This document shows, one piece after another, positions 20,232 to 20,905 of a DNA stretch of 22,230 nucleotides. Numbering within the stretch: position 1 is the first letter of the stretch; the number at the start of each line of letters is the position of its first letter. The notes under the pieces are model-generated. The model was not told the DNA's origin, did no database searches, and saw only the letters and a list, made by a program, of their open reading frames with translations. Position numbers and translations under genes: made by a program. The DNA comes from a virus (lineage: Duplodnaviria; Heunggongvirae; Uroviricota; Caudoviricetes): positions 1 to 22,230 of IMG/VR virus record IMGVR_UViG_2713896776_000007, one strand, 5' to 3'.

Positions 20232-20423
20232 ATGTCAACTATCTTGCGAGATAAAAGCCCTAAAGGGGCAGGTAAAGCCCCGATGTTCAATGTCAGGATT
20301 TCACCAGAACTGAAAGAACAGTTTGAATCACAAGCAAAAAAAGAAGGTGTTAGCTTAGGGAATTGGCTCAAAGAGCTTGGGAGAGCAGAGCTTAAGCGCA
20401 ACGGAATTGACCCGAAGGCTTAA
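20232..20423 (+). CDS. ribbon-helix-helix (Arc/CopG-type) DNA-binding protein, 63 aa
   Basis: FNVRISPELKEQFESQAKKEGVSLGNWLKELGRAEL fits the beta-strand/helix/helix RHH pattern. No obvious SD; an operator half-site abuts the ATG. Confidence 0.5.
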   Translation: MSTILRDKSPKGAGKAPMFNVRISPELKEQFESQAKKEGVSLGNWLKELGRAELKRNGIDPKA

Positions 20424-20459
20424 ATTTAGTTACTAAAAAACAATAGCTTAAGGTATTTT

Positions 20460-20545
20460 TGATAAATATTTATCACTTGTATTCGACATCATAGTGATAA
20501 ATATTTATCATTCACAGCGCATCGGCACATGATAAAATGTTATCA
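20460..20545. promoter_or_regulatory. array of three 16-bp palindromic operator-like sites at 35-bp phasing
   Basis: TGATAAATATTTATCA at 20460..20475 and 20495..20510 (perfect palindromes, identical) and TGATAAAATGTTATCA at 20530..20545, ending about 15 bp before the GAGG SD of the 114-aa gene. Confidence 0.5.
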
Positions 20546-20560
20546 CTTTGAGGCTAGTTT

Positions 20561-20905
20561 ATGCGTATACATGTTACTCTTAATGGCAAAAAAACAACCA
20601 TATCGATAGATGACTTGCTCTTCGACTATCTTGGTGCATGGTTGGTTGAACAAAGACCCAAACTGCACTCAAAACCTAAAGAGCAGTATGACCAAGCTAA
20701 GTCTCAGATTCGTAAATATGTGCAAGATAACGCAGAAAAACTCCCATCTAAGAACCTTAGCCAGCACATACAAAATGCCATTTTAGAAATAATTATGCCG
20801 AAAGAATTAAATGAAATTCTAGAGAAAAGAGGGCCAAGATATGAGAAGAAAAAGTTTGATGTGACCACAATTTTCCCTGATTGGGAAAATTATCTGAGAA
20901 AGTAA
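20561..20905 (+). CDS. hypothetical protein, 114 aa, Lys-rich
   Basis: Good SD (GAGG 7 nt upstream of ATG); AT-rich; downstream of the operator array. Confidence 0.5.
   Translation: MRIHVTLNGKKTTISIDDLLFDYLGAWLVEQRPKLHSKPKEQYDQAKSQIRKYVQDNAEKLPSKNLSQHIQNAILEIIMPKELNEILEKRGPRYEKKKFDVTTIFPDWENYLRK

Follow-up and report, generated by a model that had tools for sequence, protein, structure and literature searches.

A 22,230-nt stretch of viral DNA (IMG/VR record IMGVR_UViG_2713896776_000007; hereafter the window, whose coordinates are used unless another locus is named) carries a gene for a 114-amino acid (aa) protein, which we call fam (20561–20905, plus strand), preceded by a regularly spaced array of three operator-like palindromes. 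On balance, we lean toward the reading that fam is an autoregulated repressor that binds this array as its own set of operators. The observations that can be made directly on the DNA are the array, its co-inheritance with fam, the synteny of the locus and its location in a mobile element. We propose that fam is a small basic DNA-binding regulator. Dimers, or larger oligomers, of it would occupy the palindromes and repress the tandem promoters of its own gene, in which the spacers would hold the −35 hexamers and palindromes 2 and 3 the −10 elements. Its genomic position would make fam the functional counterpart of the c-type immunity repressor found in BcepMu-like transposable phages.

A palindrome array inherited with fam

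The three 16-bp palindromes occupy the 137-bp intergenic spacer between a gene for a 63-aa ribbon-helix-helix (RHH) protein and fam. Palindromes 1 (20460–20475) and 2 (20495–20510) both read TGATAAATATTTATCA, and palindrome 3 (20530–20545) reads TGATAAAATGTTATCA, with one mismatched pair. The initial annotation correctly placed these two identical copies and one variant exactly 35 bp apart (start-to-start distances of 35 and 35 bp), and was also right that the array ends just before the Shine-Dalgarno sequence of a Lys-rich gene: palindrome 3 is followed after 4 nt by GAGG (20550–20553), 8 nt before the ATG at 20561, and the predicted fam protein is basic (pI 9.4), with 15 Lys. The array region has a GC content of only 28%. 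With up to three mismatches allowed, the operator motif has four matches in the window against 0.10 expected, and four or more were reached in 0 of 100 dinucleotide shuffles. Only four perfect palindromes in the 22-kb window have arms of at least 8 nt, and the two copies of TGATAAATATTTATCA make up half of them. No further operator copy was found elsewhere in the window except one match with two mismatches (TGATTTATATTTATCA, 3761–3776). It lies outside the mobile element, in the tail-fibre assembly region of a neighboring prophage, and is probably due to chance.

A consensus scan placed two tandem plus-strand promoter-like sites over the array. The first, TCGACA-17-TATCAT, has its −35 hexamer at 20483 and its −10 hexamer in the right half of palindrome 2, and the second, TTCACA-16-TAAAAT, has its −35 hexamer at 20511–20516, a TG before the −10 and the −10 itself inside palindrome 3. 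Palindrome 3 departs from the perfect dyad to TGATAAAAT, and this yields an extended −10 element (TGaTAAAAT, 20530–20538), a deviation that is shared by the promoter-proximal sites of the window and of two related loci, L002 and L034. In another relative, L037, the equivalent −10 elements point leftward. Operators that overlap predicted promoters in this manner fit autoregulation and, in the relatives, also control of divergent promoters.

DNA was recovered for ten fam lineages (the window, L002, L034, L035, L047, L031, L037, L043, L036, and L038), with homologues that are ~30–52% identical. All ten have two to five regularly spaced, AT-rich palindromes or quasi-palindromes of 14–16 bp that end 13–59 bp before the fam start codon, and for L002, L035, L036, L038, and L043 the observed number of sites was reached in 0 of 100 shuffles. 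For example, L002 (fam identity 49%) has two copies of TGATAAATATTTATCA together with TGATAAAATGTTATCC and TGATAAAATTTTATCA, spaced by 34/33/34 bp, and L035 (52%) has four sites spaced by 34/34/34 bp. Three sites are present in L034 (46%; 33/34 bp), in L037 (34%; 36/36 bp), in L031 (47%; CGATAA-type, 34–36 bp) and in L043 (TATAAATAGTTATC-type, 42/42 bp), and two sites 35 bp apart in L047 (42%). Spacing is constant within each locus and ranges from 33 to 42 bp across loci, and the spacers are unrelated in sequence; therefore no helical phase is conserved. The earlier suggestion that the 35-bp phasing reflects binding on alternating faces of the helix thus does not generalize, and a likelier cause of the regular spacing is the geometry of the promoters, with the −35 in a spacer and the −10 in the dyad that follows, or else the distance that an oligomer can span.

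Sites of the GATAA..TTATC type accompany fam homologues with an N-terminal hairpin of the form MR[IL]H..GK.TT. Two lineages with other hairpins have unrelated motifs at an unchanged position and period: L036 (MRYYMTVHGRL; fam identity 31%) has five sites with the TATACTTAAATATA motif at 38 bp (38/38/38/39), and L038 (MQIHMMRDGRK; 31%) has ATGAATAC/GTATTCAT pairs at ~36 bp. An unrelated motif also replaces the operator in L049. These replacements bear on the proposal that a host factor, either a Fur-like regulator or a nucleoid protein (H-NS, IHF), binds the palindromes and ties fam to host physiology. The site does resemble the 7-1-7 Fur motif TGATAATnATTATCA plus one extra base, the core TGATAAATATTTATCA is identical in the enterobacterial element and in the GC-rich metagenomic relatives L002, L034, and L035, H-NS and IHF recognize AT-rich DNA such as this region, and in other genomes unrelated regulators use palindromes of a similar TGATAA..TTATCA form. 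We nevertheless consider a host factor very unlikely, given the exchange of motifs at the same place and period, the attachment of the array to fam at every locus, the near absence of other copies from the window, and a half-site spacing that is 1 bp off the Fur box (taking the Fur consensus from general knowledge).

A scan of a genome collection for two TGATAAA...TTATCA dyads 10–30 bp apart returned 23 loci, among them 22-bp arrays in Prevotella and, in front of transporter and BlaI-type genes, operator-like pairs. None of the 23 has a fam homologue, and the half-site alone is therefore not diagnostic. Arrays of TGATAAA...TTATCA with a strict 22-bp period are found at many places in Bacteroidota metagenome-assembled genomes (L014, L023, L011, L018, and other Prevotella/Onthomorpha contigs) and are unrelated to fam.

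The RHH gene upstream (20232–20423, plus strand) was initially regarded as the regulator acting through the palindromes. The identification of its 63-aa product as an RHH protein stands: it scores 27.3 bits (E 3.5e-6) against the Pfam family HicB (PF05534), above the gathering score of 21, the matched part being the C-terminal RHH DNA-binding region of that family, and it matches PHROG 228 (“Arc-like repressor”) at 1e-6, with weaker, sub-cutoff matches to Arc, RHH_1, and RHH_5. Binding of this protein to the three palindromes, with repression of fam as a cargo or accessory gene, would be in keeping with a genuine RHH gene that directly precedes the array on the fam strand and is not separated from it by a terminator, and RHH proteins commonly bind arrays of short repeats. 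The comparative evidence points the other way. The array is present at fam loci outside the Enterobacterales in which no 63-aa RHH gene was found by tblastn and inspection of open reading frames (ORFs). Conversely, the Escherichia coli element L045 encodes an RHH protein with 90.6% aa identity, and neither a fam gene nor any such palindrome within three mismatches was detected in its 12.3 kb. Similarity between the window and L045 breaks off at the RHH stop codon and restarts just after the fam stop codon. Thus, the array and fam constitute one cassette, and the RHH gene with its own inverted repeat constitutes another. The operator palindromes are likewise absent from phiE255 and PhiKM, two DUF3102-bearing phages without fam. 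Taken together, we regard RHH binding to the array as unlikely.

The inverted repeat of the RHH cassette, GTATAGACCTA-N19-TAGGTCTATAC (20191–20231), abuts the RHH start codon and is a candidate RHH operator. Both arms are identical in L045, with three substitutions in the 19-nt spacer. Also conserved there, at 100%, is a hairpin with a 14-bp stem (20128–20162) in the divergent intergenic region. The RHH protein probably acts at its own inverted repeat, and probably regulates itself and/or the leftward DUF3102–Mor operon. Close homologues (up to 90% identity) are frequent in Enterobacterales and are labeled “HicB family antitoxin” or YlcI/YnfO family. The antitoxin name reflects only the DNA-binding tail; the PF05534 match covers residues 19–47 of the 63. 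A HicAB antitoxin was rejected given this short match and the lack of a HicA match in either neighbor (DUF3102 or fam). A toxin-antitoxin reading of the whole locus was also set aside (HicA is missing, the 137-bp spacer is filled with operators, and fam matches no toxin family), as was a plasmid-partition (ParG-centromere) reading (no ParA, and the context of a chromosomal transposable element). In E. coli O157:H7 EDL933 (L046, 3066410–3067153), DNA with a weak match (68%) to the RHH region lies in an oppositely oriented gene for a 247-aa hypothetical protein of a P4-like island (integrase, helix-turn-helix (HTH), Icd-like, DUF927 primase).

The fam family and its predicted fold

The fam protein of the window has no match in PHROG and none in Pfam at E values up to 1, and a sequence search of the PDB returned none. 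Just one of 39 family members matches RHH_4, at E 0.016. Only four relatives were recovered by a word-indexed search, and an exhaustive HMMER search of 1.84 billion representative proteins extended the family to ~42 clusters; one profile match (P0029, 732 aa, 10 “repeats”) was discarded as a low-complexity tandem-repeat protein. Neither a tblastn search with three family members against 50,697 phage records nor a DNA search of these records with the region gave any match. Conservation is strongest in the N-terminus (MRIHVT..GKKTTISVDD.L.DYLGA), of which MRIHVT..GKKTTISVDD is the predicted beta-hairpin, and in a later LP.KNLSQ.VQ..I segment.

An AlphaFold2 (AF2) model based on a 39-sequence alignment (predicted local distance difference test score, pLDDT, 93.3) predicts a beta-hairpin at residues 2–7/10–15 and helices at residues 18–28, 39–56, 66–78, and 81–90. 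The same beta-beta-alpha4 layout was predicted for a 32%-identical member from an independent alignment of 14 sequences (pLDDT 84). Foldseek searches with the fam model found nothing significant (E at least 1.1 in PDB and at least 0.26 in BFVD). In a comparison with the RHH repressors (Arc, Mnt, MetJ, and CopG; Pfam RHH_4), including the engineered permuted single-chain Arc of PDB 1u9p, the model differs in having its two strands in an intramolecular hairpin and not in an intermolecular ribbon; furthermore, fam of the window matches no Pfam RHH model, and the structural scores are below significance. Within the hairpin, R2, H4, and K10 are common to the homologues with GATAA-type operators and differ in the two lineages with other operators. 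This correspondence between hairpin residues and operators is suggestive, with overall divergence as a confounder.

The immunity-repressor position of Mu-like elements

Where a related locus extends far enough, fam is seen to diverge from an operon that has a DUF3102 gene in it and a gene for a Mor-family activator at its end. In the Herbaspirillum prophage L036, for example, the divergent genes are sRNA-Xcc1, DUF3102, a 586-aa rve protein, a 399-aa AAA_22 protein and Mor. The order is that of Bcepmu-type transposable phages: in phiE255, the repressor gp46 is divergent from an HTH gene followed, among others, by the DUF3102 gene gp41, the transposase gp40, the transposition ATPase gp39, GemA, and finally Mor (gp32). 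The DUF3102 protein of the window is a homologue of gp41, which precedes the transposase. When compared with phiE255, fam is divergent from the early operon, near the phage end and separated from the operon by operators in L036, L037, L038/39, and the P0005 contig. A Mu-type end motif is found 1.0–1.5 kb downstream of fam in the window element, L036, L034, and L038. By synteny, fam occupies the immunity-repressor position of BcepMu-like transposable phages, and the KS10 paper describes phages of the Bcepmu type as keeping the repressor divergent from a small DNA-binding gene. Of the initial proposal of a compact switch or a tightly repressed accessory gene, the compact switch is retained, as the palindromes are operator-like and overlap the predicted promoter of fam, whereas the wiring of an accessory gene does not agree with the position of fam.

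The immunity region of Mu has a c repressor with operators O1–O3 between Pc and Pe, and the repressor of BcepMu is gp17. The fam loci share with Mu, BcepMu, and phiE255 a small repressor-like gene transcribed toward the nearby phage end and divergent from the DUF3102–transposase–MuB–Mor early operon, several operators in the divergent intergenic region that overlap promoters, and TG...CA ends with short target duplications. There are also clear differences. A comparison of the fam profile with phiE255 gp46 by hhalign gave a probability of 0.1%, so that homology to the known repressor is not detected, and neither an HTH nor a winged-helix signature is present in fam. In phiE255 the operator is a single GGTAAC-N6-GTTACC, compared with three to five dyads at ~35 bp in fam loci, and the window element, unlike Mu-like phages, has no transposase and no MuB.

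Moreover, the early operon of the fam relatives opens not with the Ner-like HTH gene of Mu-like phages but with a C4/Xcc1-type RNA. Ten fam loci have an Rfam-significant C4 antisense RNA or sRNA-Xcc1 on the strand opposite to fam, between the array and the divergent operon, with all scores above the Rfam gathering threshold and all on the minus strand: L035 (41–227, an isrK match beside C4), L038 (4620–4705), L031 (1139–1223), L043 (1487–1571), L048 (644–728), L049 (251–342), L002 (929–1016), L034 (3685–3772), L037 (5674–5761), and L036 (7509–7592). These “sRNAs” thus resemble leader RNAs, or RNAs involved in immunity, of Mu-like elements, and some ORFs that overlap them, such as a 61-aa ORF in L036, are probably spurious. 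In the window no such RNA was found, even at E values up to 1, and its space is taken by the RHH gene in the opposite orientation.

This arrangement recalls the immI region of P1 (C1 operator Op51–c4–icd–ant), since in at least ten fam loci the array is followed on the other strand by a C4 RNA or sRNA-Xcc1 and then by small ORFs, which matches the P1 order of repressor-controlled promoter, c4 RNA and downstream genes, and also that of P22 (Mnt/Arc–ant), since the Mnt/Arc-like RHH gene of the window is divergent from the leftward operon as mnt is from Pant. On the other hand, we identified neither an Ant nor an Icd homologue here, fam has no relationship to C1, and the RHH gene is on the fam strand.

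In the relatives, the array sits between fam and the divergent C4/Xcc1–DUF3102(–transposase–MuB)–Mor operon, and for this reason the array would be expected to control the leftward operon as well. Several points weigh against the repressor model. Such control is not evident in the window, because the RHH gene separates the array from the operon. DNA binding and repression by fam, like the target of the RHH protein, are what we infer, in the case of fam for a protein without Pfam, PHROG, or PDB sequence matches, and the covariation of motif and protein is confounded by the overall divergence of the elements. L047 has two sites only, and L042 has no clear array by automatic scan. In one Enterobacter roggenkampii copy (L004, 6001–6346) fam is frameshifted into ORFs of 84 and 98 aa (P0002/P0003) with the operators intact, and fam is therefore dispensable or decaying in that strain. 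Finally, promoter-like sites are not above chance (3 against 3.3 expected in shuffles), so the promoter geometry counts as consistency and not as proof. That count, together with −10-like hexamers in both orientations, could be taken to mean that the palindromes have no dedicated binder and are AT-rich promoter or UP-type elements, or a recombination relic. This seems highly improbable to us: the 16-bp perfect dyad occurs twice, and strict spacing is maintained in each of ~10 diverged loci with unrelated spacers, a pattern typical of protein-binding operators.

A compact mobile element without a transposase

The element that carries fam is 7,754 bp long and extends from 14617 (TGATCC...) to ~141 bp past the end of the window (...TAATCA). 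Its boundaries were derived by comparison with E. coli AW1.7, the E. roggenkampii locus L004 and IMG/VR contigs (for the right end L044, L004, and L032). Further copies are located at L044 3518–11271 and L004 57–7811; the copy in E. coli AW1.7 is 100% identical over the query region and 99.97% identical over the whole element, and L032 is 100% identical to the window over 5.7 kb. Each insertion has its own 6-bp target duplication: AAGACA in AW1.7, inside a lambdoid major-capsid gene, GTGGCT in L004, between a LysR-type gene and a transporter gene, and TGCACC in the window (left copy at 14611–14616, exactly where the flank diverges from the AW1.7 and E. roggenkampii copies) and in L032, where this hexamer follows the right end. 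The 341-aa lambdoid capsid ORF of AW1.7 is restored only by removing the element plus a 6-bp copy, and L030 has a further distinct right flank. The termini are of the TG...CA type with paired GATAAAT-type repeats; the left end (5'-TGATCCACCGCGCGATAAATAAGCCGCAATCCGTGAGATAAATGG..., 14617–14676, plus strand) has two such repeats, and the two ends share 78–79% identity (left 79%) with the ends of the record for Escherichia phage Phi06_2974 B, which is Bcepmu-like.

These terminal repeats raise another explanation for the array, which is compatible with a repressor role of fam: the palindromes could be, or also be, transposition sites, comparable to the Mu internal activation sequence (IAS), an internal enhancer, and bound by a helper transposase. 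The operators O1–O2 of Mu double as a transpositional enhancer. The half-site (T/C)GATAAAT resembles the terminal repeats GCGATAAAT and GAGATAAAT, GATAAAT-containing repeats are found at equivalent positions of the two ends, and the half-sites of L035 and L031 (CGATAAAT) are identical to the end octamer. Chance may account for the resemblance, because the window contains 17 copies of GATAAAT, both strands counted. In addition, L036 and L038 keep the end motif in spite of their different operator motifs, and the element has no transposase with which co-variation could be tested. We therefore judge a transposition function for the palindromes to be unlikely, and retain operators of fam as the preferred interpretation.

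Nine genes were identified in the element. On the minus strand these are genes for an 825-aa tape-measure-like protein (14705–17182; Pfam PhageMin_Tail 4e-19; PHROG 28 and 5690), for a 197-aa coiled-coil protein and a 204-aa protein similar to the N-terminal domain of the Mu-type head protease (17215–18424; PHROG 976 at 1.8e-45 for the latter), for a Mor-family transcription activator (18467–18841; Pfam Mor 1.7e-21), and for a DUF3102 protein, the first large gene of the leftward operon (19350–20111; Pfam 24.6 bits, PHROG 1748 at 2e-23). A 96-aa protein is also encoded, and the plus strand has the RHH gene, fam and a gene for a 114-aa protein with a Mu gp27 N-terminal domain (21886–22230; Pfam Phage_Mu_Gp27 3.6e-14). 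None of the nine ORFs matches rve or AAA_22, both of which are present in the autonomous relative L036; the element thus lacks transposase and MuB genes and is non-autonomous. We conclude from the sequence comparisons that it is a non-autonomous Mu-like element that moved recently. The trio of protease-N-like (~204–252 aa), coiled-coil (~198 aa) and tape-measure-like genes is found beside Mor or fam in very distant relatives (L038 1–2134; L043 3583–5970), and genes for a capsid, a portal or a large terminase subunit are not seen near it. This speaks for a set of genes kept by selection and not for the remains of random deletions.

Two further features lie between fam and the gp27-like gene. 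Directly 3' of fam (20925–21067) is a cluster of four to five perfect or near-perfect palindromes of 14–26 bp with A-run/T-run flanks, three of the four listed having CAGCGCTG/CAACGTTG cores. About 16 such palindromes fill the equivalent space after the RHH gene of L045 (~6330–7170). These palindromes might serve as an array of binding sites for the gp27-like or the RHH protein, or might be stacked terminators. Farther downstream, perfect 34-bp inverted repeats (21193–21226 and 21444–21477) flank a 217-bp segment upstream of the gp27-like gene that contains a promoter-like TTGAAT-16-TATAAT (21325–21352) and a bidirectional terminator-like hairpin (21269–21301). This segment looks like an invertible promoter switch; the element itself encodes no invertase.

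The rest of the window (1–14616) belongs to a different prophage with a Mu-type myovirus tail module (sheath, tube, a 635-aa tape measure, and DNA-circularisation/baseplate genes) and tail fibres, including oppositely oriented fibre/assembly genes beside a truncated DNA invertase (1893–2291). The insertion of the element adjoins a gene for a 186-aa protein matching PHROG 209.

The element may be a satellite of Bcepmu-like phages. Like laboratory mini-Mu, P4 and satellites of the phage-inducible chromosomal island (PICI) type, it is compact (7.75 kb), with both transposition ends, regulators (fam, RHH, Mor), a gp27-N-like gene and few morphogenesis-like genes, and with no replication or transposition enzyme, and near-identical copies are present at several insertion sites in two genera. 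This likeness is an analogy, with helper dependence, packaging and interference all putative. In a literature search, we found no natural Mu-type satellite and no description of fam or of this palindrome array. More speculatively, fam may represent an undescribed immunity-type repressor family in which a single-chain hairpin/four-helix module, a natural analogue of permuted Arc, acts on three to five dyads ~35 bp apart, and its cassette may be the immunity switch of a transposase-less satellite “mini-Mu” that has its own regulators, a gp27-like protein and protease/scaffold/tape-measure-like genes and recently hopped between E. coli and Enterobacter. We offer this fuller scenario tentatively, and think it has a good deal less than an even chance of being right as a whole.

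Repressor-operator switches of temperate phages are classic, and the logic of the proposed switch is not new. For genome annotation, RefSeq labels the RHH protein “HicB antitoxin” and fam “hypothetical”, and the attractive assignment of the RHH protein to the palindromes is corrected here as probably wrong. The system is tractable, with a 137-bp operator region, two tiny proteins and an identical copy in a culturable host, E. coli AW1.7 (locus KD735_RS12020–12060). A compact, recently mobile and transposase-less Mu-like element that disrupts prophage genes bears on prophage domestication and on the biology of phage satellites. The fam proteins appear to form a regulator family that is not homologous to the known repressor, has no structural match and sits at the immunity locus of Bcepmu-like transposable elements; with a confidently predicted fold and no relative in Pfam, PHROG, PDB, or BFVD, this family would bring a new architecture for DNA binding and, for transposable phages, a new type of immunity.

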